The translations under genes were made by a program, and so were the position numbers. Under the pieces are notes generated by a model. It made no database searches. It was not told where the DNA came from and saw only the letters and a program-made list of their open reading frames with translations. Shown here piece after piece: positions 4,555 to 48,590 of a stretch of 64,000 nt of DNA (position 1 is its first letter; every line of letters starts with the position of its first letter). The DNA is from an uncultured Candidatus Saccharibacteria bacterium (lineage in GTDB: Bacteria; Patescibacteriota; Minisyncoccia; Phycocordibacterales; UBA918): positions 1,521 to 65,520 of the forward strand of contig CAZYTF010000001.1 in NCBI GenBank assembly GCA_964649535.1, in the 5' to 3' direction.

Positions 4555-6162
4555 ATGCGTGGTGTATTTTTTTATGTTGCTGTCATAGGATTAGTGTTGG
4601 GTATTTTTGCACGTTCTCTGTATGAGTTTGGGGTAGAGAGTATTGCCTGGATATTGTTTCTAAGTTTCACTGCGGTAGTTATTTGGAAAAGAAGTACCTT
4701 AGTTGCCAGGGAGGAAATTAGTTTTGAAAACAAGTCTTCATGGAATCAGCACTCTTCATTGTCGTTCGTTTTGTTGTGTAGCATCTTCATGCTTTGCATG
4801 TCACTTGGGGCGTTGCGGATGGAAGTAGCCAATTGGAAAGATGGTCAGAGTCAGTTTCTGTCTTCAGTTGGAAAAGAAGTTGCTTTTAGAGGGGTTGTAC
4901 AAAGAGAGCCAGATATTAGGGAAAATGCGACACATCTCTATGTGCGTGTAGATACAGAAATTGTATTGGTGACTACGGACAGGTTTGCAAATATACGTTA
5001 TGGTGATGAGCTTTTTGTGACGGGGAAGCTCATGGAGCCCTCCTCATTTGAAACAGACTTAGGCCGCACTTTTAATTACCCAGGATATTTGAGGGCACGA
5101 GGTGTTGCGTACATGATGCAGTATGCAGACATCGAAAAAGTTTCTTCCGGAAAGGGAAATCGTGTTGTCTCGGCACTTTTGTCTTTTAAGATGCGTTTCA
5201 TGGAGAATATTGAAACGGTGCTACAGGAACCACATGCGGGGCTTTCAGAAGGATTGCTTCTCGGAGTGAAACGTGCACTTGGAGAAGATCTTGAAACTGT
5301 CTTTAGGAAAACTGGCATAATCCATATTGTTGTACTCTCTGGCTATAACATCATGCTTGTTGTAGCGTTTGTCATGTATGTGCTCGCATTTCTTTTGCCA
5401 ATGCGCGCACGTCTTGTGTTTGGAATTGTCGCAGTGTCTGCTTTTGCGCTTATGGTTGGACTGAGTGCAACGGTCGTTCGCGCCAGTATTATGGCGGCAC
5501 TCGTTTTGGTTGCACGTTCGTTTGGTCGAACCTATACCGTTATGCGTGCACTTATGCTTGCTGGCCTTGTGATGCTTTTCATTAATCCCTACTTACCTGT
5601 GTATGATACGGGTTTTCAGCTTTCATTTGTCGCGACGCTTGGACTGATACTGGTTGCTCCGGTTATAGAGGCACGACTTCATCTCGTGCCAACAGTAATT
5701 GGTCTACGTGAATTCCTTACCGCGACACTAGCTACACAACTTTTTGTGATGCCAATATTGCTATACCAAATCGGTGAGTTTTCTGTGGTCTCAGTGGTGG
5801 TGAATGTACTTGTCCTCCCAATGGTTCCTGTTGCGATGCTTTTAACTTTTGCAGCTGGCATGCTTGTGTTTGTTTCTCATACACTTGCATTGCCGATAGC
5901 GTTTGTGGCATACGGGTCACTGACATACATAATTTCTGTAGCAACATTCTTTGCTGCACTCCCGTTCGCATCATTTGTTGTTCCCACATTCCCTTTTGTG
6001 GGTGTGCTTGTTGCGTATGGTGTCCTTGGTTACGGACTTTATTATTTTTCTCATGTTAAAAAAGATACTAAAGATACTCAGACGTTCTCGGAGTGGACGA
6101 TAGAGGAGGCTGCAGATGTAGAAAGAGAAAAAGAAAAGCCTCTGCCTGTGTTCTTTCGGTAG
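4555..6162 (+). CDS. comEC: ComEC/Rec2 competence channel protein (DUF4131 plus Competence domain; no MBL domain)
   Basis: 535 aa polytopic membrane protein. Has an N-terminal OB-like region and the competence-domain motif (IIHIVVLSGYNIM, many TM helices). It ends before any beta-lactamase-fold domain. Confidence 0.75.
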   Translation: MRGVFFYVAVIGLVLGIFARSLYEFGVESIAWILFLSFTAVVIWKRSTLVAREEISFENKSSWNQHSSLSFVLLCSIFMLCMSLGALRMEVANWKDGQSQFLSSVGKEVAFRGVVQREPDIRENATHLYVRVDTEIVLVTTDRFANIRYGDELFVTGKLMEPSSFETDLGRTFNYPGYLRARGVAYMMQYADIEKVSSGKGNRVVSALLSFKMRFMENIETVLQEPHAGLSEGLLLGVKRALGEDLETVFRKTGIIHIVVLSGYNIMLVVAFVMYVLAFLLPMRARLVFGIVAVSAFALMVGLSATVVRASIMAALVLVARSFGRTYTVMRALMLAGLVMLFINPYLPVYDTGFQLSFVATLGLILVAPVIEARLHLVPTVIGLREFLTATLATQLFVMPILLYQIGEFSVVSVVVNVLVLPMVPVAMLLTFAAGMLVFVSHTLALPIAFVAYGSLTYIISVATFFAALPFASFVVPTFPFVGVLVAYGVLGYGLYYFSHVKKDTKDTQTFSEWTIEEAADVEREKEKPLPVFFR

Positions 6163-31496: not shown

Positions 31497-31644
31497 TAAT
31501 TTCGCCAGAAATAGCGAGTTGCTGCGTTGAACATCGGTAATCAAACGCTCGCCGTACAATACGTACGTCTCGTGTTTGATTCCTCGTTCACCTTGCAGCC
31601 CATCAATTTCTGACAAAATTGTGATAGTTGCTATAGCCAAAAAC

Positions 31645-31679
31645 AAAAAAGTGCGGACCTATGGTCCGCGCTTTTTTGT
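31645..31679 (+). terminator. Intrinsic terminator after rpsJ
   Basis: gcggacc-tat-ggtccgc followed by TTTTTT. A second hairpin lies at about 31700-31735. Confidence 0.6.
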
Positions 31680-32433
31680 GTATACGCATGCAAAAGAAAA
31701 ATCAGCACTTGGGGCCGCTGATTTTTCAAAAAACACATTTCCTCGGCCTGTGGACTTCAGATAATGTATTTGATCGTGTGTGGTGGGAGACCTCTCACTC
31801 TTGCGATTATACCTCCAGCAAGAAGTCAGTGCCTTCCTACGATGCGCTCATAACACCTTTTACAGAGGCGGTAGACTTTAGCAATATTTTTTCAAAATAT
31901 CAGTTAAAGTTTTACAAAGTGCCACCCAGGCACTTTTCACACATCTTACCTTTTATGATGTGTAAAAAGTGCTTTTCTTTCAATAAAAAAGCTCGATGTT
32001 ACATTTTGTGAATGTATAAGCACCGAGCTTCGATTTTTCAGGGTATTGCATTTGGTAGCAAGCACTTTGCTTAACTTTCACCTTGTCAATCCGCCCTGAC
32101 GGGGTCGTGATGGATAGCTTCGTAGGCTACCCATCGGGATCACGGGTGGCGAGGTAATACTCGAAGAGAGAAAGTTCTCCTTTGAAGATGTTTACCACTG
32201 TCGCACGCATAGCCGTACCCCTTTTTTGCAGACAATCGGCACTCTAAAAAATAGAGTTTGGAATCGTGTCTACTATTACAAATTCCGTTACTTACGATAC
32301 TCCTATTCTTTTTGAGACGCAAGTTGTAATATGTAAGTAACCTATTGCAAATAATTGACATTATTCATATATATACTGTATTCTGCATTCTAGAAGTGTA
32401 TCGATTCGTACACAAGCATTGGAGGTATAGGAC

Positions 32434-33549
32434 ATGAAGACACGCTTAATTGAGTTTGGAGTGTTTGTTATTGCAATTGTGCTCATTTGGCATTGGTATG
32501 TTGGTTTGTTTTGGCAACCTTTGTTTTTTGCTGTGCTTCTGGCGGTAACCTTTCATGATTTTTTTGAACGGTTGTGTCGTCAAGTATGGATCAGTGATTC
32601 TATTGCTGCACTGATGGTTGCTATGATTGCGTTGCTGATCCCGGTCATTCCGGCAGTCTTCGCAGTCTACTATTCTATTGGTGTTGCTGATCGTCTGATT
32701 AGTGCACTACGCATACCGACATCGGATGAATATTTGTGGTTGTCAGAAATCGTAACAGAACTTAATGAAAGAGTTCCATTTCTGGCTGAATATCTCCAAC
32801 TTGATGGAGGAGGTATTGATTCGTTTACGAAACTGTTGACGAGTAACTGGAATGGAGTTGCGTCTGTCAGCCGATCAATTATTGGCACTGTATATACAAG
32901 CTTTGCGGGTATAATGTTTGGCATTGTTGTCGCACTCTTGGCTCTCTACTACTTTCTGAAAGATGGGAAGAAGTTGCTTGCTTTCGTAAAAAAGGCAGCG
33001 CCAGTGCGTGTCGAGTTCGTGACTCGCGCATTCGATGAGTTTGTGCAGATGACGCGTGCAATGGTTAAAGTGACCATCATCGTTGGGTTTGTGCAGGGTG
33101 CTATTGGTGGGGCAGCCCTTTGGTTTGTCGGCACGCCGTCTGCACTCATGTGGACATTTGCCATGATGCTGCTTTCCATGATGCCCATACTGGGTGCTGG
33201 TATAGTGCTTGTTCCGACATCAATCATCTACTTCTTCACAGGAGACATGGTGAGTGGCTCGGTTGTGTTGGGGACATTTGCGTTTGTGTCGGTGGTGGAT
33301 AATATCCTGAAGCCGAAAATCATTGGCGGTGATATGTCACTGAATGAAGGTTTGATTTTGCTTTCGGTTGTTGCTGGCTTGGCAACATTTGGAGCTATCG
33401 GCATGTTTGCTGGACCAATTTTGTTTGCATTGCTTACTGCAATGATTGATGTCTATCTGCGCATGGCTAGTAGTACGTTTGAATCTAAGCCGTGGCAGCC
33501 GTATACGCCACCGCCACCTGTTTTTCGTACACACAAACATCGTGTGTGA
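32434..33549 (+). CDS. AI-2E family transporter (PerM/YdiK-like) membrane protein
   Basis: 371 aa with about 8 TM helices and the length and Gly-rich helices typical of UPF0118/AI-2E. Family call from topology and composition. Confidence 0.55.
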   Translation: MKTRLIEFGVFVIAIVLIWHWYVGLFWQPLFFAVLLAVTFHDFFERLCRQVWISDSIAALMVAMIALLIPVIPAVFAVYYSIGVADRLISALRIPTSDEYLWLSEIVTELNERVPFLAEYLQLDGGGIDSFTKLLTSNWNGVASVSRSIIGTVYTSFAGIMFGIVVALLALYYFLKDGKKLLAFVKKAAPVRVEFVTRAFDEFVQMTRAMVKVTIIVGFVQGAIGGAALWFVGTPSALMWTFAMMLLSMMPILGAGIVLVPTSIIYFFTGDMVSGSVVLGTFAFVSVVDNILKPKIIGGDMSLNEGLILLSVVAGLATFGAIGMFAGPILFALLTAMIDVYLRMASSTFESKPWQPYTPPPPVFRTHKHRV

Positions 33550-33793
33550 AATGCAAAGCGTCTGGGATTTATCTCAGGCGCTTTTTACTTGCATATACTT
33601 TGAATATCAGTATACTAACGACCAGCTTTAGAAGACCTATGTTCGGTGATATGTGGCTTGCCACATTGAGAACCAATGGGCACAAAACCGCGTTTTTTTG
33701 CGGGACTTGTGTCCCGCCTAAAACGCGGTTTTGTTTATCCTCTCGAGGGTATCGGGTCTAATAAGGCAACTTTATTAGATAGTTCAAAAATAA

Positions 33794-36365: not shown

Positions 36366-36383
36366 GAGTAGTGTGTTACACAA

Positions 36384-36411
36384 AAAGCCGGCGCTTTGCG
36401 CCGGCTTTTTG
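36384..36411 (+). terminator. Intrinsic terminator immediately after rplB
   Basis: aagccggcgc-tttg-cgccggctt followed by TTTTT. Confidence 0.6.
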
Positions 36412-36499
36412 TGTATAAAGTGTTGCTACTTTTTTACTAGTTTGACGCAGGATTTTTTCTATATATATTAAAAATACTTGGCAATTGTTCTGCCAAGTA

Positions 36500-36754
36500 T
36501 CACTTCTTCTCCTTCACGCAGAGGAGGGGGCCTTTATGAGCTCTGAGGTATTTTTTATTTTCTGAACACTTTGCCCATGCGCGCATTGATCGCCTTCCGC
36601 GCAGCCAAGCTTCTTTTTCGCTTAGTGCGTTAGTGACGAGGACAACTTCATTGCTCTTGTCGCTGTCAGGAACACGGTCGCCGCTCAAAAGGTCCTGTTT
36701 TATGACCACGGCAACAAAACGTTTTGGTTGTTTGAACGCAATAACATTTTTCAT
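36500..36754 (-). CDS. Small protein (84 aa), possibly toxin-like (weak BrnT-like C-terminal pattern)
   Basis: AGGAG ribosome-binding site. EVVLVTNALSEKEAWL loosely resembles the RIISAR-AT..E..Y motif of DUF497. Confidence 0.35.
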   Translation of the reverse strand: MKNVIAFKQPKRFVAVVIKQDLLSGDRVPDSDKSNEVVLVTNALSEKEAWLRGRRSMRAWAKCSENKKYLRAHKGPLLCVKEKK

Positions 36755-36842
36755 GAGGTTCTCCTAAGAACTTTTTAAATATTCAAACACGTCTATCTAA
36801 ATTTGACAATAGCTGTTGCAAAGTATAAGAGAATCTTCTTCC

Positions 36843-37160
36843 CTATACCCCTGGCTTCCGTTCTCTTTCCTTGAAACTGAAGTTCTGCAGTTTCTTGCTG
36901 TTTTGAAGCGCATGAAACACTTCCCTTGGTTTGTCTGCGTGTACCGCAATTTTTTGGACACTCTGACCTGTGATGATGAGTTCTATGCCGGCTGTTGTGT
37001 ACGCAGCTGTTACAAAGCGAGAGCTTGATCCTTTTCGACTTTGTGTTTTTATCATGCCAGGAGCAATCATTTTGACGCCATTAAGCCGTTTTAGTACAGA
37101 TACAACTAACGCAGCGGTTTCAGTCAGTGTTGTATGTTCTTTTCCACGGGGTTTTGCCAT
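36843..37160 (-). CDS. Hypothetical small protein (105 aa)
   Basis: Basic N-terminus MAKPRGKEH. No Shine-Dalgarno sequence. Weak HU/IHF-like pattern only. Confidence 0.3.
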   Translation of the reverse strand: MAKPRGKEHTTLTETAALVVSVLKRLNGVKMIAPGMIKTQSRKGSSSRFVTAAYTTAGIELIITGQSVQKIAVHADKPREVFHALQNSKKLQNFSFKERERKPGV

Positions 37161-37186
37161 AGGGGGAGCATAGCATAAAAAATGTA

Positions 37187-37222
37187 AAAAAAGCCGCGAA
37201 TTTTCGCGGCTTCACTCTTTTT
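37187..37222 (-). terminator. Terminator downstream of the membrane-protein gene
   Basis: aagccgcgaa-tttt-cgcggctt followed by a U-run on the minus strand. Confidence 0.5.
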
Positions 37223-37227
37223 GTGCA

Positions 37228-37557
37228 TTATCGTTTAAATGCCGGCCACTTTGTGAACAGCGCTTTGAAACTTGTTGAAAAAGCGGTTTCAGATTCGTCT
37301 GATAGTTTCCTCTTATGAAACCATATAATCCAAGCTATTATGGCAAAAATAGAAGATATGAACCAGTATGAAACAAAAACCAAAAATAGTCCTCCGTAAA
37401 GCAGTACGGTACTCGGCCTACGTAACACTTCATTTGTATTTATGTCGTGTAACACTTGGGTAGTCATTGACGCTGCTAACACTAGCAAAAACACCCAGTT
37501 TATAATCAGCCTGACCACATGGTTTTGAGGCATTGCGGAACTTTTTCTCGGTTTCAT
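37228..37557 (-). CDS. Small membrane protein (109 aa)
   Basis: Three predicted TM helices. Confidence 0.4.
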   Translation of the reverse strand: MKPRKSSAMPQNHVVRLIINWVFLLVLAASMTTQVLHDINTNEVLRRPSTVLLYGGLFLVFVSYWFISSIFAIIAWIIWFHKRKLSDESETAFSTSFKALFTKWPAFKR

Positions 37558-37628
37558 GTAAGAACTCCTTTCAATAGTTAGTTAACTCTTTTTCCAGTAT
37601 CGAGTCAAGCCTCTTGTGCTTCAATTTT

Positions 37629-37657
37629 ATTGACTTTTGCCCTTATTTCCCGTACTA
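37629..37657 (+). promoter_or_regulatory. Sigma70-like promoter for rpsS and downstream genes
   Basis: TTGACT, a 17-nt spacer, then TACTAT. About 160-nt leader before rpsS. Confidence 0.4.
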
Positions 37658-37816
37658 TAGCGCACGTTCTAACCTCGTTTTGGATTCGCTCCTGGTAGGG
37701 CAATCCCTAACAAAAACCGTTACACTTTGAGCGTTTTACGCTCGAGGGCAGAATAAAATTATTAGTTTGTGGCTACTGTAAGACCACTGGTTTTTATGTA
37801 GTCGTATTTCATTCTT

Positions 37817-41008: not shown

Positions 41009-41563
41009 ATGACTACAACTACAACAGCGACAATGAAAGCCAAGTTGGCAGATACATTTGAGTCACTCAAGAGTGTATTTGGGTACAAGAATGTCATGGA
41101 GGCACCAAAGATTGAGAAAGTAGTTATTTCAACTGGTGTTGGAAAGATTGATGATAAGCACAAACTTGCGCTTATTGAAGATAGGCTTGCAAAAATTACT
41201 GGTCAGAAACCATCGCCACGACCAGCAAAACAATCTATTGCATCGTTTAAGCTTCGTGAGGGAGATATTATTGGGTACCAAGTAACACTACGGGGTGCGC
41301 AAATGAATAGTTTCCTCGACAAGCTTATCCATGTTGCATTGCCACAAACACGCGATTTTCGCGGACTTAACGCATCTGCAATTGATGAAATGGGAAATAT
41401 GACACTCGGTATCAAGGAACATACAATCTTCCCTGAGACTACAAATGACGAACTAAAAGACGTCTTTGGACTTGCGATCACTATCGTAACGACAACAAAT
41501 GATATAAAAGAATCCGAAGCACTCCTTCGATACATCGGCTTACCGCTGAAAAAAGCTGAATAG
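41009..41563 (+). CDS. rplE: 50S ribosomal protein L5
   Basis: NVMEAPKIEKVVIS...REGDIIGYQVTLRG. A Thr-rich N-terminus; an alternative start lies at 41033. Confidence 0.9.
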   Translation: MTTTTTATMKAKLADTFESLKSVFGYKNVMEAPKIEKVVISTGVGKIDDKHKLALIEDRLAKITGQKPSPRPAKQSIASFKLREGDIIGYQVTLRGAQMNSFLDKLIHVALPQTRDFRGLNASAIDEMGNMTLGIKEHTIFPETTNDELKDVFGLAITIVTTTNDIKESEALLRYIGLPLKKAE

Positions 41564-41570
41564 CTTTTTA

Positions 41571-41592
41571 GAAAGCAAACTGCTTTGCTTTC
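41571..41592 (+). terminator. Hairpin after rplE
   Basis: gaaagcaaa-ctg-ctttgctttc. Confidence 0.45.
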
Positions 41593-41798
41593 GACAGGGG
41601 TAAGAGTCAAAGGCATGTTTCCTTCTCCTTGCGTAGAGAAGAAAACAGTCGAGACCGGGGAGGAAGTTCTTATGAGCGTAAGCGAATTAGAAACTTGACC
41701 CTTCCTTTGAAAAAAGAAGAAGTTGAGGAGGCTGCGTAAACACTTTTCACGCAGCACAAACGTAACGGTTTGGGTTAATTCTCAAAGTATAGAATAAC

Positions 41799-41830
41799 AA
41801 AAAGGCAGCACCCAGGTGCTGCCTTTTTGT
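41799..41830 (+). terminator. Intrinsic terminator
   Basis: ggcagcacc-cag-gtgctgcc followed by TTTTT. Confidence 0.55.
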
Positions 41831-41836
41831 GTGATA

Positions 41837-41864
41837 TTGACAAAAAAGCTTTATTATGTATAAT
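41837..41864 (+). promoter_or_regulatory. Consensus sigma70 promoter for hflK
   Basis: TTGACA, a 16-nt spacer, then TATAAT. Confidence 0.5.
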
Positions 41865-41928
41865 AATGACAGAATTCTGTGCAATAGTGGCGCAGTTTTT
41901 TGTTTTTTAGAACAGAAAGGGTACTACC

Positions 41929-42933
41929 ATGACATTTCGTGATAATCACACTAAGCCAGATGAAGGTTTTGAGGGGATTGAACAAAAAATTCTTTCCGAA
42001 TGGCCAAAATATCTTCTGCGTGCAGTACTCGCACTCGGCTTGATTTTTGCAGTTCTCAACAGCTGGTATACCGTCGATAAGGACGAGGAAGCGACAGTCC
42101 GCCGTTTCGGCGCACACATCGCAACCACTGGTCCTGGTCTGCACTTCATGATTCCCTTCGTGGATAAGGTGCAAAACACATCAGTGACAACTGTGCACCG
42201 GATTGAGATTGGTTTCCGCACAACGTCTGTTGAGGACAACACCCCTCAGTATGCAGCGTCTTCTGAAGAAGCTGAGATGCTGACTGCCGACGACAACATT
42301 GCGAACATTGATTTTGTCGTTCAGTACCGCAGCAGCGATGCTGCCAAGTGGCAGTTCAGTGTCATGGATCCAGAAAAGACACTGAATCTCATGGCTCAGG
42401 CTGCAATGCGATTGATTATTGGCCGGTCTGACTTTGACCGGGCAGCAACAATCGGTAAAGCTGAAATTCAAGACGAAGTCCGTGATGTGCTGCAAGCCTA
42501 TTCCGACTCTGTTGAAACGGGCGCGCAGATTGTTTCGGTTCAGCTTCAAGATGTGCAGCCGCCGGCACCTGTTATTGAAGCATTTAAGGACGTGGTGACC
42601 GCTCGTGAAGAGCGTGAGACTCTCGTCCAGGTCGCGAATCGACATGCAAACAGGGTATTGCCGCAGGCACGTGGTGAAGCTGCGCAGATTACAAACTCTG
42701 CAAATGCATACTCAAGCGAGCGTGTTGCAGAAGCTATGGGTGATGTTGCTCGGTTCAATGAAGTTTTGGTTAAGTACCAGGCTTCGCCGGAAGTTACTGC
42801 TCAACGACTGATTTTTGAAACGCAGGAAAAGGTCCTGCGTGGTCAGACAATCGTGGTGGACCCCAGTGAAGGTGGTCTTCTGAAATTCTTCAACATTGAT
42901 GGTTCGGGCATTCCGACCGCAACACAGAAGTAA
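41929..42933 (+). CDS. hflK: SPFH/band-7 protein HflK
   Basis: N-terminal TM helix and an SPFH core (VRRFGAHIATTGPGLHFMIPFVD...). About 52% GC, against about 42% in the flanks. Confidence 0.8.
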   Translation: MTFRDNHTKPDEGFEGIEQKILSEWPKYLLRAVLALGLIFAVLNSWYTVDKDEEATVRRFGAHIATTGPGLHFMIPFVDKVQNTSVTTVHRIEIGFRTTSVEDNTPQYAASSEEAEMLTADDNIANIDFVVQYRSSDAAKWQFSVMDPEKTLNLMAQAAMRLIIGRSDFDRAATIGKAEIQDEVRDVLQAYSDSVETGAQIVSVQLQDVQPPAPVIEAFKDVVTAREERETLVQVANRHANRVLPQARGEAAQITNSANAYSSERVAEAMGDVARFNEVLVKYQASPEVTAQRLIFETQEKVLRGQTIVVDPSEGGLLKFFNIDGSGIPTATQK

Positions 42934-42943
42934 GGGAAACGTT

Positions 42944-43690
42944 ATGACTCATGCTGATACAGCTACTCCTCGACCGCGCCGCCGGATGCGGAACAGAATC
43001 CTTTTGGGGATTCTCCTCGTCGCCATGGTTGGGCTGAAGACTAACCTGACTGTTGTCGATGAGACAGAACGGGCCGCCGTCTTCTTCTTCGGTGACCCTG
43101 TCCGTAATCTTGACGAGCCAGGTGTATACCTGACTCCGTTTTGGCAAACGGTCACCGTCATGGACAACCGCTATCGGTTGTACGATAGCAATCCAAGTGA
43201 AATCATCACTGCAGACAAAAAGACTGTGGTGACTGATGACTTCACGCTCTGGCGTATTGGGGACCCAACTAAGTTTATCCAAGCTGTTGGAACTCCAGCC
43301 TCGGCGCTGAAGCGCATCGATGACGACGTGTTCTCGCAACTCCGTCGCTCTTTTGGGGCACGGAACTATGAAGACATCGTGGTTAACGACCGAGAAGCTA
43401 TCATTGCGACAGTAACTGATCGTGCAGGCCGTACGTTGGCGACAATCTCGATTGATGTCGCCATGGTGCTCACAAACCGTGTTGAGCTGCCGCCTGAAAA
43501 CAAGCAGGCAGTCTACACACGGATGAGTGCTGAACGCCTGCAACAGGCGCAACAGTACCGTTCTGAAGGGGAAGCGGCTCGCTGCACAGAAAGCAGCGTA
43601 ACGTTCTTTAACGCAATACCCGGCGGGAATTTATTCCGCCGGTTTTTTTATACAAAACCATTGACTTTAGGCGTATTTTTGGTACTCTAG
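42944..43690 (+). CDS. hflC: SPFH protein HflC, apparently truncated at the C-terminus (possible pseudogene)
   Basis: TM plus SPFH core (ERAAVFFFGDPVRNLDEPGVYLTPFWQTV). The HflC-like sequence stops near 43590 (..QQYRSEGEAAR); the remaining reading frame runs through an intrinsic terminator hairpin. Confidence 0.6.
   Translation: MTHADTATPRPRRRMRNRILLGILLVAMVGLKTNLTVVDETERAAVFFFGDPVRNLDEPGVYLTPFWQTVTVMDNRYRLYDSNPSEIITADKKTVVTDDFTLWRIGDPTKFIQAVGTPASALKRIDDDVFSQLRRSFGARNYEDIVVNDREAIIATVTDRAGRTLATISIDVAMVLTNRVELPPENKQAVYTRMSAERLQQAQQYRSEGEAARCTESSVTFFNAIPGGNLFRRFFYTKPLTLGVFLVL
43619..43649 (+). terminator. Intrinsic terminator at the island's right edge
   Basis: cccggcgggaat-tt-attccgccgg followed by TTTTTTT. 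Confidence 0.6.
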
Positions 43691-43928
43691 TCCTCGACAT
43701 GAGATGTTGCTTCCTTCAGGAAAATACAGCTCGTGAAGGCGAGTTTTATTTGAAAACGAGCCGGATTATTAGGGAGTAAGTTGTGACATCTTCACAATAC
43801 TGCTCTAAAACTAAGTACGAGAAGTGGAGTAACTTCGAGTTCCGACGTCCAGCAATTTGCTCTAGGAAAGGAGCAAATTGGGACGTAAATTCAACATAGT
43901 CGCTTCGCTCCTTGTTTCATTTAATTTA

Positions 43929-44114
43929 ATGGCACGAAAGTCAATCATTATTCGGTCCCTACGGGTTCCGAAATTCAAGTCTCGTGTTGTCCGACGTTGC
44001 AACCAGTGTGGTCGTAAACGAGGATACATGCGCGATTTTGACCTTTGTCGTATTTGCTTTAGAGAGCAAGCGAACGAAGGACATATACCAGGTATAAAGA
44101 AATCATCATGGTAA
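43929..44114 (+). CDS. rpsN: 30S ribosomal protein S14, type Z (61 aa, zinc-binding)
   Basis: MARKSIIIRSL...CNQCGRKRGYMRDFDLCRICFRE. Confidence 0.9.
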   Translation: MARKSIIIRSLRVPKFKSRVVRRCNQCGRKRGYMRDFDLCRICFREQANEGHIPGIKKSSW

Positions 44115-45426: not shown

Positions 45427-46104
45427 ATGAGCGAAGAAAAAAAGCAGGAAGCTACAACGCCGGAAGTCGCAGTCGCGACACCAGCACCAGAAGCCACAAA
45501 GGCTTCTACCGATGCACCCGCTACTGTTTCTTCTGCAACGCCAGCAACTGGTGAAGCAGGACAGCCAGCAACAGGGAATCGACCAGCTCGAGGACCACGA
45601 GGTGCGCGAGGAGGTGATAGAGCGCGTAATCCACGTCGACCACGACGTGGTGGACGACGAGACGACCGCGCACGTCAGGAGTATGAGCAAAAAATCATCA
45701 GTATCCGTCGAGTTACTCGTGTGATGGCTGGAGGACGACGATTCTCATTCTCAGTTGCAATGGTTATAGGTGATAAAAAAGGCAAGGTTGGTGTAGGAAT
45801 CGGCAAGGCTGGTGATACGCAGCTTGCAATTGAGAAAGCGATGCGAGATGCAAAGAAATGTCTCATTACTGTCCCCATGAACAAGGACGGACACCTTCCA
45901 CATGACGTGCATACTAAGTATGCATCAAGTGAAGTAATGATTATGCCAGCACCAGGTCGAGGACTTGTTGCCGGTTCATCAGTACGAACCGTACTTGAAC
46001 TTGCGGGAGTAAAAGATGTGACCGCAAAGATTTTCTCACGAAGCAAGAACAAACTAAATAATGCTCGAGCAGCTATTGAGGCACTTAAGCAGTTGAAAGC
46101 CTAA
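45427..46104 (+). CDS. rpsE: 30S ribosomal protein S5 with a roughly 60-aa low-complexity A/T/P/R-rich N-terminal extension
   Basis: IRRVTRVMAGGRRFSF...GIGKAGD core. N-terminal MSEEKKQEATTPEVAVATPAPEA...RGARGGDRARNPRRPRRGG. Confidence 0.9.
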   Translation: MSEEKKQEATTPEVAVATPAPEATKASTDAPATVSSATPATGEAGQPATGNRPARGPRGARGGDRARNPRRPRRGGRRDDRARQEYEQKIISIRRVTRVMAGGRRFSFSVAMVIGDKKGKVGVGIGKAGDTQLAIEKAMRDAKKCLITVPMNKDGHLPHDVHTKYASSEVMIMPAPGRGLVAGSSVRTVLELAGVKDVTAKIFSRSKNKLNNARAAIEALKQLKA

Positions 46105-46115
46105 ATTATACGAAT

Positions 46116-46565
46116 ATGCAATTACACGAACTAAAACCAACAACTCCTCGAAAGACTGAAAAGCGAATCGGTCGTGGGGGAAAGCGTGGTAAAACTTCAG
46201 GAAAGGGTCATAAAGGTCAAAAGGCACGAGCAGGAAATAGTACTCGACCTGAGATGCGGGAAATCATCAAGAAGATTCCAAAACTTCGTGGTCACGGTGT
46301 AAACCGCGCGAAGACTGTAAATAATGAACGGATACTTCCTACTATTGTGAATGTTGCTGCACTAGAAACAGCTTTCGAGGCTGGAGCAGCAGTAAACCCA
46401 AATGCACTTGTTGCAGCTGGTGTTATCGGAAATCGTCGAAAGAAAGCCCCAACGGTAAAGATTCTTGGAAATGGTGAGCTTACTAAGAAATTAACAGTAA
46501 CTGGATGTATTGTTTCTGCTTCAGCTAAAGAAAAGATTGAAAAAGCTGGAGGGAGCATCGCATAA
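46116..46565 (+). CDS. rplO: 50S ribosomal protein L15
   Basis: RIGRGGKRGKTSGKGHKGQKAR. Follows rpsE directly, so there is no L30 gene. Confidence 0.9.
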   Translation: MQLHELKPTTPRKTEKRIGRGGKRGKTSGKGHKGQKARAGNSTRPEMREIIKKIPKLRGHGVNRAKTVNNERILPTIVNVAALETAFEAGAAVNPNALVAAGVIGNRRKKAPTVKILGNGELTKKLTVTGCIVSASAKEKIEKAGGSIA

Positions 46566-47855: not shown

Positions 47856-47869
47856 AAATTTTACAATTA

Positions 47870-47905
47870 AAAAGTGCCGCACCTGAAAGGTGCGGCACTT
47901 TTTAA
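47870..47905. terminator. Bidirectional intrinsic terminator
   Basis: agtgccgcacc-tgaaa-ggtgcggcact, flanked by A/T runs. Confidence 0.6.
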
Positions 47906-47960
47906 TATTTTTGTTTAGCAATCACGGTTATCCTAGAGGATAGCTGTGTACTCGCATAGT

Positions 47961-48530
47961 TTAATTAGTAAGCCACGCATTGTATGCATTGATAATTGCT
48001 TCCTTTGCTTCCTCTGGAGTGTTTGTCTTTGTGTCAATAACTAAATCGTAATTCTGGATATCATAGGGGTTGGCATGATATAGGCTTGCATAGCGCTTTA
48101 TTTCGCTAGTGAGACGTTTTTCGAGAACGGTCGCATATTCAGTTGGGTTATGCGGGATGTCTTCAGCCTGCATCCGTTCCTCACTCATATTTGTAAGTAT
48201 TCGAGTAGCTGCTACAGATAGCTCAAGGTCTAGATATACTTTAAATGAATATGGCATCCAATGCCAAGCCATCCGTGAGTCAATAACTAACTCATCATTT
48301 TTTCTGCCCATATCTTGCAGTTTTTTATCAACAAGATGATCAATCTTTTTCTCAGTTTCAGCCAGGACATTTACTTCATATATGTCTATCCCTCGTTCTT
48401 TTGCAATAGTGCGGAAAAGATCTCCTGAAGAAAAATGAGTATATCCAAGTTCAGATGCGATTAGTTTTGATGTTGTTGATTTGCCACTCCCCGGTTTGCC
48501 TGCCAGTGTGATAATGTGTTTCTTTTCCAT
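47961..48530 (-). CDS. Cytidylate kinase-like (CMP kinase family 2 / AAA) nucleotide kinase
   Basis: LAGKPGSGKSTTSKLIASELGYTHFSSGDLFR. Confidence 0.6.
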   Translation of the reverse strand: MEKKHIITLAGKPGSGKSTTSKLIASELGYTHFSSGDLFRTIAKERGIDIYEVNVLAETEKKIDHLVDKKLQDMGRKNDELVIDSRMAWHWMPYSFKVYLDLELSVAATRILTNMSEERMQAEDIPHNPTEYATVLEKRLTSEIKRYASLYHANPYDIQNYDLVIDTKTNTPEEAKEAIINAYNAWLTN

Positions 48531-48590
48531 AATCGCATTACCATACCATCATCTTGTAATTTTGTGTAACTCACGTAAACTGCTTTAGTT

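Follow-up and report, generated by a model that had tools for sequence, protein, structure and literature searches.

A cassette of hflK and a truncated hflC at a variable junction of the ribosomal-protein gene cluster of a candidate phyla radiation bacterium

The rplE-rpsN interval and its signals

The window analyzed here is a stretch of 64,000 nt from contig CAZYTF010000001.1 (assembly GCA_964649535.1, deposited as an uncultured Candidatus Saccharibacteria bacterium), with positions numbered from its first letter. It carries a plus-strand ribosomal-protein gene cluster in which rplE (ribosomal protein L5) and rpsN (ribosomal protein S14), which are adjacent in most bacteria, where insertions lie between operons (PMC8046335), are 2,365 nt apart (end of rplE at 41563, start of rpsN at 43929). 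This agrees with the roughly 2.3 kb reported in a first-pass annotation of the same DNA. The genes of the insert are an intact hflK and a truncated hflC, hereafter hflC', both encoding proteins with an SPFH domain; no Pfam domains were found in the antisense open reading frames (ORFs) within it. We regard this pair as a probably laterally acquired accessory cassette of the candidate phyla radiation (CPR), lodged in a permissive spacer and with its hflC in decay. The features of the interval are as follows.

41009-41563, plus strand: rplE (L5; Pfam Ribosomal_L5 and L5_C), final gene of the rpsS-to-rplE unit
Between the rplE stop and the first terminator hairpin: non-coding stretch of about 230 nt
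41797-41830, no strand assigned: terminator T1, palindromic and bidirectional, closing the rplE unit
41837-41864, plus strand: hflK promoter, TTGACA-16-TATAAT, 12/12 consensus match
41877-41908, plus strand: hairpin and U-run in the hflK 5' untranslated region, terminator-like in the scan but with a weak fold
41929-42933, plus strand: hflK, intact, 334 aa (TIGR01933, Band_7)
42944-43690, plus strand: hflC', truncated, 248 aa from the likely ATG; HflC homology 42944-43597, unrelated tail 43598-43690
43620-43649, plus strand: terminator T2, 9-bp stem with 7 GC pairs and U7, inside the hflC' tail
43661-43688, plus strand: rpsN promoter, TTGACT-N14-TGGTACTCT, extended -10 type, overlapping the end of the hflC' ORF
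43696-43928, plus strand: structured rpsN 5' leader, with the module A hairpin at 43730-43811 and a long hairpin at about 43846-43889
43929-44114, plus strand: rpsN (short zinc-ribbon-type S14; Pfam Ribosomal_S14), opening the rpsN-to-secY unit

The hflK-hflC' stretch is an autonomous SPFH cassette with its own consensus sigma-70 promoter and its own terminator. The perfect-consensus promoter already proposed in the first-pass annotation is borne out, being the sole perfect TTGACA-16-TATAAT in 64 kb, against a chance expectation of 0.09. T1 is a perfect palindrome between A- and U-runs and folds at -25.8 kcal/mol (z -6.2 against shuffled sequences), while T2 (43620-43642 plus U7) folds at -16.5 kcal/mol (z -2.9), upholding the terminator previously assigned after hflC. 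Two terminators had also been placed after rplE, but only that at 41797-41830 is convincing; the other, a hairpin directly 3' of the rplE stop, has no U-tract and folds no better than shuffled sequences (z -1.0). No DNA similarity to relatives was found upstream of hflK.

An additional hairpin at 41877-41908, followed by U6-G-U6, lies about 6 nt past the predicted hflK transcription start (fold z -1.9). It may act as an attenuator of the perfect-consensus hflK promoter, or be nothing.

HflK and the truncated HflC

HflK scores 229.5 bits against the TIGR01933 equivalog profile (cut-off 159.4), covering profile positions 2-260 of 261. Its Band_7/SPFH domain spans residues 48-238 (Pfam), and the hydrophobic stretch YLLRAVLALGLIFAVLNSWY, read by eye, is a putative N-terminal membrane anchor. 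The two genes are adjacent and co-oriented, with 10 bases between the hflK stop (42933) and the hflC' start (42944), and the hflK-hflC order is identical in all relatives of the clade described below. Neither protein matches a PADLOC defence model. Judging from family membership, HflK would probably still act as a membrane SPFH scaffold modulating FtsH, and HflC' would keep its membrane anchor and SPFH domain without the C-terminal helices of the cage 'hat'.

The Band_7 domain of HflC' is complete (Pfam). At 91.9 bits against the TIGR01932 equivalog, however, the protein remains under the cut-off of 134.4 for whole-protein membership: it is HflC-derived by its best matches and by synteny, yet an incomplete member. 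Homology to full-length relatives stops at residue 218 (nt 43597) and is followed by complete divergence. The alignment with the best match, P0122 (58% identity), ends at residue 225 of 305, and that with E. coli HflC covers residues 4-244 of 334. About 80 C-terminal residues are absent; the truncation noticed in the first-pass annotation is therefore confirmed, although its extent, put there at about 100 aa, was too large. The last 30 codons of hflC' are the translated T2 hairpin followed by the -35 and -10 elements of the rpsN promoter, in line with the earlier remark that the frame runs through the terminator.

No short HflC was found among the clade relatives, all of which have proteins of 296-305 aa (298-305 aa in five aligned sequences, 296-302 aa for the hflK partners in gene tables). 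The missing C-terminus is not encoded in any frame of the window (tblastn with the last 95 residues of four relatives, all E > 0.1), nor does a collection of 5.8 billion proteins contain an intact, near-identical allele. Measured against four relatives, the ratio of HflC' identity to HflK identity is 0.84-0.88.

In E. coli, HflK and HflC subunits alternate, and their C-terminal parts of about 110 residues form the hat of the cage (PMC12048511). Because HflC' is devoid of the region from which the hat is built, it lacks most of its hat contribution, and by analogy it would be unlikely to close a normal alternating cage. HflC' is probably a decaying or crippled partner, its 218 open codons reflecting either a recent lesion or residual function.

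Two routes could have produced the cut in hflC. In route (a), a complete cassette would have lost about 240-260 nt by a deletion that began at codon 218 and stopped just short of the cassette's own terminator; lineage L142 has its terminator about 30 nt past the hflC stop. In route (b), a fragment with arbitrary ends would have integrated just past the rplE stop with its right end inside hflC, in which case the hairpin at 43620 would be the resident rplE terminator. In the 'empty' relatives L017 and L019, a single terminator precedes the rpsN promoter by 10-45 nt, and the window has a similar arrangement. Both routes would fit, and we make no choice between them.

Two further observations concern the ends of the insert. 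An 8-nt direct repeat, AGAAAGCA, occurs at 41570-41577, just past the rplE stop, and at 43588-43595, at the end of the HflC homology, the copies being 2,018 nt apart. It is at chance level, as one of 35 8-mer repeat families in the region. The plus-strand segment 41686-41740, situated 125 nt past the real rplE stop, translates to IRNLTLPLKKEEVEEAA followed by a stop codon, resembling the L5 C-terminus of relatives (in L019, LGLPLQKPATEEEAA followed by a stop codon), and holds a 12/14-nt repeat (D3) of the rplE end. When compared with the last 17 codons of rplE, its best ungapped score was 43, against 27.2 ± 3.4 for shuffled sequences (1 of 150 shuffles equalled it); a profile hidden Markov model applied to 41564-41740 gave a non-significant E = 6. 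The segment is a possible, if weak, candidate for a degenerate relic of a second or foreign rplE 3' end, for which route (b) would also account.

Relatives of the pair and base composition

The nine closest HflK clusters, 54-62% identical to HflK of the window, form one clade in 200/200 neighbor-joining (NJ) bootstraps and include one sequence labelled Paceibacterota. The next tier lies at about 42% identity and spans many phyla. As far as can be told from these sequences, the donor pool of the cassette is the CPR and not a group outside it, given that the nearest HflK and HflC sequences make up a monophyletic, CPR-only clade; the first-pass annotation had instead envisaged a donor outside the CPR.

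Genomic contexts differ widely within this clade. In L001/L002 the gene pair is intact and divergent from rpsN. It adjoins guaA and mraZ, two genes not in the window, in L003, L004, L012, and L013, follows a sortase gene in L005/L006, and forms a bare promoter-hflK-hflC-terminator module in L142. A metagenome scan for further rpsN-adjacent hflKC pairs returned only the known L001 organism again (L130, 99.9% identical), and the ribosomal genes of this lineage (L001/L002/L130) are 65-85% (about 72%) identical to those of the window. The hflKC clade is small, CPR-specific and patchy, and occurs in unrelated contexts.

Base composition sets the cassette apart from its surroundings, as the first-pass annotation had stated. 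GC content is 0.50-0.54 over 42000-43650, compared with 0.40-0.45 in the flanks and 0.43 in the window as a whole. GC content at third codon positions (GC3) is about 0.48 in hflK and about 0.55 in hflC' (0.47-0.56), against a mean of 0.379 (standard deviation 0.068) over the 73 ORFs of the window used for composition statistics, which corresponds to z scores of about +1.5 and +2.5, respectively. In codon usage, hflC' is the fourth least typical of the 73. The hflKC genes are GC-richer than their neighbor genes in every host examined (GC 0.56-0.60, GC3 0.70-0.79), and their GC3 in the window is intermediate between the 0.70-0.79 of the other hosts and the window's own 0.38. Such values agree with a compact cassette being passed from one CPR genome to another and being partly ameliorated in the window.

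Two variable junctions in the ribosomal-protein gene cluster

The comparison set consisted of the 80 species-representative genomes whose L5 is most similar to that of the window (54-75% identity; 73-75% for the closest), all of them Kaiser-, Taylor-, Adler- or Zambryskibacteria-type Paceibacteria, in which 16 junctions of the cluster were measured. Only two junctions vary across the 80 species, rplB-rpsS and rplE-rpsN.

L2-S19 (rplB-rpsS): 48 loci with both genes; median 998 nt; 40 above 300 nt, 24 above 1 kb; maximum 2,539 nt
L5-S14 (rplE-rpsN): 61 loci with both genes; median 658 nt; 40 above 300 nt, 23 above 1 kb; maximum 4,882 nt

At 11 further loci, S14 was not found within at least 3 kb of L5. 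Among the other 14 junctions, 12 never exceed 300 nt, while L24-L5 does so once and L18-S5 three times. The first-pass annotation had described the insertion site as part of a highly conserved operon; with 40 of 61 spacers longer than 300 nt, it is one of the two places where the cluster is variable.

The L5-S14 gaps hold 146 ORFs, 99 of which are singletons without a homologue in any other gap. Recognizable cargo families comprise ECF sigma factors with DUF5667 partners, purple acid phosphatases, Fic proteins, methyltransferases and a reverse transcriptase, whereas the gap ORFs of the closest relatives mostly encode proteins without a recognized domain. None of the 80 loci has hflKC at this junction, and in the relatives none was found within 6 kb of rplE. 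According to the first-pass annotation, relatives with the same intact pair at this site would have refuted its reading; no relative has the pair there in the same orientation, though L001/L002 carry an intact pair beside rpsN in the divergent orientation.

Four lineages (L056, L060, L062, and L074) share a three-gene L5-S14 cargo, encoding a minus-strand protein of about 435 aa and plus-strand proteins of about 200 and 370 aa; it is the sole recurrent multi-gene cargo seen. A Pfam survey of all gap ORFs counted three to four ECF-type sigma factors and three DUF5667 proteins, with the carriers unconfirmed.

The ribosomal-protein cluster of the window itself is interrupted at four places.

rpsJ-rplC, 31497-33793: unknown 116-aa ORF and an AI-2E family transporter gene (32434-33549)
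rplB-rpsS, 36366-37816: minus-strand ORFs at 36843-37160 (weak DUF2103 match) and 37228-37557
rplE-rpsN: hflK and hflC'
secY-adk, 47856-48590: minus-strand cytidylate-kinase-like gene at 47961-48530

The rplB-rpsS spacer of the window contains a bidirectional terminator at about 36381-36414 and an rpsS promoter, TTGACT-17-TACTAT, at about 37632-37660, which is common to L017-L021. Within 45427-46565, S5 is followed directly by L15 and the L30 gene is absent, as expected for the CPR. A ComEC-type competence channel gene at 4555-6162 represents a route for the uptake of foreign DNA.

Predicted transcription units and the rpsN leader

On the evidence of conserved signals, rplE ends one predicted transcription unit and rpsN opens another with a conserved promoter and leader. 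The five closest relatives have a bidirectional terminator about 10-120 nt past rplE. More generally, 23 of 53 open junctions have a terminator-like hairpin no more than 150 nt past the rplE stop, compared with 1 of 21 tight junctions and 1 of 46 coding-region controls. A promoter of the form TTGAC(T/A)-N14-TGGTAnnnT precedes rpsN both in the window and in its relatives; the pattern has two matches in the window against 0.09 expected. Inspection by eye places the same layout upstream of rpsN in L016, L017, L018, and L021. With a terminator after rplE and a promoter and leader belonging to rpsN, the cassette interrupts neither predicted unit. The first-pass annotation had located the insertion inside an operon, a view that these signals in the relatives contradict.

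The rpsN leader (about 235 nt) has a minimum free energy of -77.5 kcal/mol, against -55.6 ± 4.2 kcal/mol for shuffled sequences (z -5.2), and its DNA is conserved with L001/L002, L016, L017, and L019. In the module A hairpin, 8 of 11 pairs show compensatory changes, with an outer GGGAG...CTCC stem and a variable inner stem. The module or leader is located at 5506-5740 (minus strand) in L001, 7316-7398 in L016, 6840-6924 in L017, 6681-6762 in L019, 9980-10050 in L018 and 7481-7551 in L021. A covariance model of module A matches only its seven source lineages and none of the other 73 species. The leader has no Rfam family match: the whole 64-kb window gave zero matches at gathering thresholds (no tRNA, rRNA or riboswitch), and at E ≤ 5 only spurious matches to terminator hairpins were obtained over 41560-43940. 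We consider the rpsN leader a candidate autoregulatory RNA for a ribosomal protein, perhaps S8, S14 or L5.

The 3' half of the leader (window 43840-43928) occurs a second time in L019, at 2520-2850 directly upstream of rpsS, complete with the ATAGTCGCTACGCTC box and with the long hairpin, in which there are compensatory changes. This points to the use of one leader module at the two breaks of the cluster. The rpsN ATG itself has no obvious Shine-Dalgarno sequence. A strong Shine-Dalgarno-like GGAAAGGAG, situated in the loop of the long hairpin, accompanies an in-frame TTG 51 nt upstream of the ATG (43878-43928). An extension of rpsN to this TTG is not conserved, the upstream sequence of L002 containing an in-frame stop.

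Origin of the cassette and alternative explanations

An NJ tree was built from a seven-protein concatenation (S14 through SecY). The window and L001/L002 belong there to a seven-lineage clade with 200/200 bootstraps, branching as (L001,(L017,(window,L016))). L016 is the sister of the window in 78% of bootstraps, and L001 in none. The rplE-rpsN junctions of L016 and L017 measure 871 and 405 nt and are free of hflKC. In the HflK tree, the window copy is basal to the eight other CPR copies in 153/200 bootstraps and sister to that of L001 in 0/200. Both are quick NJ trees with few taxa, and the shifted composition of the window copy could pull it to the base. Together with the opposite orientation in L001/L002, these positions favor independent placement over a shared ancestral insertion.

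The explanation that we prefer, and hold to be likely, is that of an accessory CPR hflKC cassette which was acquired laterally, came to lie in a permissive spacer and is losing its hflC to decay. It would most likely have come by lateral transfer from another, higher-GC CPR bacterium, because its clade is patchy, found in unrelated contexts and GC-richer than its hosts. The spacer in which it settled would separate two ribosomal-protein units transcribed independently of each other, and the insertion would be tolerated there because no operon was broken. This spacer and that between rplB and rpsS hold differing accessory genes in almost every species of the group. Like a genomic island, the insert deviates in composition and codon usage, and its site is empty or otherwise filled in close relatives.

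A number of observations weigh against this explanation. The cassette is flanked by no integrase, transposase, att-like or target-site repeats, so that the case for a lateral transfer, as read from the sequences, would consist of composition and patchy distribution. The codon usage of hflK is not strongly atypical. Moreover, the GC excess is partly intrinsic to hflKC and the adjacent ribosomal genes are GC3-poor, and because part of it is intrinsic the GC contrast is no proof of a recent transfer. That hflKC also adjoins rpsN in the related lineage L001/L002 would be compatible with shared ancestry. As regards decay, the identity of HflC' to P0122 (58%) is not reduced relative to that of HflK, and some function is possible, since 218 homologous codons are still open and the SPFH domain is complete. 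Lastly, no FtsH gene was present among the 20 window ORFs scanned, a selection consisting of the largest ORFs and the cluster genes.

Among the alternatives for the origin of the pair, an ancient vertical resident deserves most attention, though we think it improbable. Under this scenario, hflKC would have entered once in the ancestor of the window and L001/L002, with a later inversion and losses in L016, L017 and others, and the GC excess would be a property of the genes. The intact pair of L001/L002 directly adjoins the conserved rpsN leader within the same well-supported clade, hflKC is GC-rich relative to its neighbors in all hosts, and an HflK identity of 62% could fit the ribosomal-protein identity of about 72%. 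The trees nevertheless speak against it, in that the window associates with L016 and then L017, both lacking hflKC at the junction, and its HflK never with that of L001. The orientations are moreover opposite, the gene past hflC in L001/L002 is not rplE, and the scenario calls for a gain and an inversion as well as two or more losses. Far less credible is the version of the first-pass annotation, a recent acquisition from outside the CPR that broke into a strongly conserved operon. The contrast in composition, the truncated hflC and the usual adjacency of rplE and rpsN would all agree with it, but all close homologues are from the CPR and monophyletic, non-CPR proteins reach at most about 42% identity, and the junction, which varies in 40 of 61 related species, is a transcription-unit boundary. 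The GC steps at both ends of the insert are abrupt, as they would be if an assembly had joined hflKC of a higher-GC organism to a CPR ribosomal contig. Both junctions are, however, spanned at 100% identity by contigs of four accessions (two ENA assemblies and two SRA runs), including one contig of 165 kb besides short single-run ones, and the boundaries of the insert coincide with functional signals (terminator, promoters) instead of arbitrary points. The locus is therefore not an assembly chimera, an explanation to which we attach next to no weight.

The fate of hflC' has to be judged separately. Instead of decaying, HflC' could be a functional short SPFH partner, comprising anchor and SPFH domain, in a modified and perhaps open assembly with HflK. 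We consider this unlikely, if somewhat less so than ancient residence. Its frame is uninterrupted over the 218 homologous codons in a genome of 43% GC, Band_7 is complete, identity to the best full-length relative equals the level of HflK, the truncated allele is the sole one observed across the four accessions, and open, asymmetric HflK/C assemblies have been published (PMC12048511). To be set against this are the clade, which has no other short HflC, the new 30-residue C-terminus made of a translated terminator hairpin and the rpsN promoter, the loss of precisely the region that builds the cage hat, and the lower identity relative to HflK against four relatives.

Discussion

The nearest characterized counterparts of the pair are E. 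coli HflK and HflC, modulators of the FtsH protease (PDB 7VHP, 7WI3, 9CZ1). They too are encoded by adjacent hflK and hflC genes, and in both systems the proteins combine an SPFH/Band_7 domain with an N-terminal membrane anchor, which is putative in those of the window. The window proteins are both shorter, and HflC' has no equivalent of E. coli HflC residues ~245-334, the hat helices of the 24-mer cage (PMC12048511). In addition, the cassette belongs to a separate, CPR-only clade with at most about 42% identity to non-CPR HflK. By itself the hflKC cassette is an ordinary accessory pair of a small CPR genome, a further and damaged representative of a known family at a site that is unusual yet permissive. 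The two clade-wide variable junctions, which have promoters and leaders of their own, are the more notable result.

Hotspots of horizontal gene transfer are reportedly flanked by core genes. The rplE-rpsN junction resembles them as a fixed site between conserved genes whose accessory cargo varies between lineages and has atypical codon usage. It differs in that its flanking genes encode ribosomal proteins and belong to the most conserved cluster known, that no integrase or tRNA is associated with it, and that the evidence is cross-species and not drawn from a within-species pangenome.

In the paper collection searched, no relevant literature was found on CPR spc-operon insertions, on CPR HflK or on the two variable junctions. 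For Gammaproteobacteria and Bacilli, four gene insertions analyzed in detail lie between classical operons or inside rpoBC, and recombinational replacement of rpsN within spc has been described in the same study (PMC8046335). Those insertions likewise are small sets of unrelated genes in a conserved translation-gene cluster, and synteny at the affected point tends to be looser afterwards. In contrast, the CPR breaks fall inside the S10 and spc operons of model bacteria (rplB-rpsS and rplE-rpsN) and recur throughout the class with ever-changing cargo.

Autoregulatory mRNA leaders of ribosomal-protein genes offer a parallel to the rpsN leader, an example being the site in the E. coli spc operon to which S8 binds (Fu et al. 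2013; PMC3616713). The rpsN leader, a long, stable and covarying 5' untranslated region, is likewise placed directly before the first gene of a ribosomal-protein unit encoding S14 and S8. Unlike the E. coli site, the leader has no Rfam match and is known from seven lineages only, so the likeness is one of position and kind.

A broader model would have the ribosomal-protein supercluster of Paceibacteria cut at rplB-rpsS and rplE-rpsN into autonomous units, each equipped with a terminator, a promoter and a long, structured leader that is probably autoregulatory, and with the spacers serving as standing landing pads; the hflKC cassette would be one sample of this. Their cargo may be swapped between species by recombination at the ultra-conserved ribosomal flanks after DNA uptake, for which the window has the ComEC gene, and the rpsN leader would be a new, narrowly distributed regulatory RNA. 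We put this model forward tentatively, as one slightly more likely to be wrong than right in the form given here.

HflK and HflC are rare and patchy in the CPR, and a natural combination of HflK with a hatless HflC offers a ready test of whether assembly requires the HflC C-terminus. The two open junctions have a practical side as well, as binning and phylogenomic pipelines assume contiguous blocks of ribosomal-protein genes. They also bear on how the stoichiometry of ribosomal proteins is regulated in the reduced organisms of the CPR.

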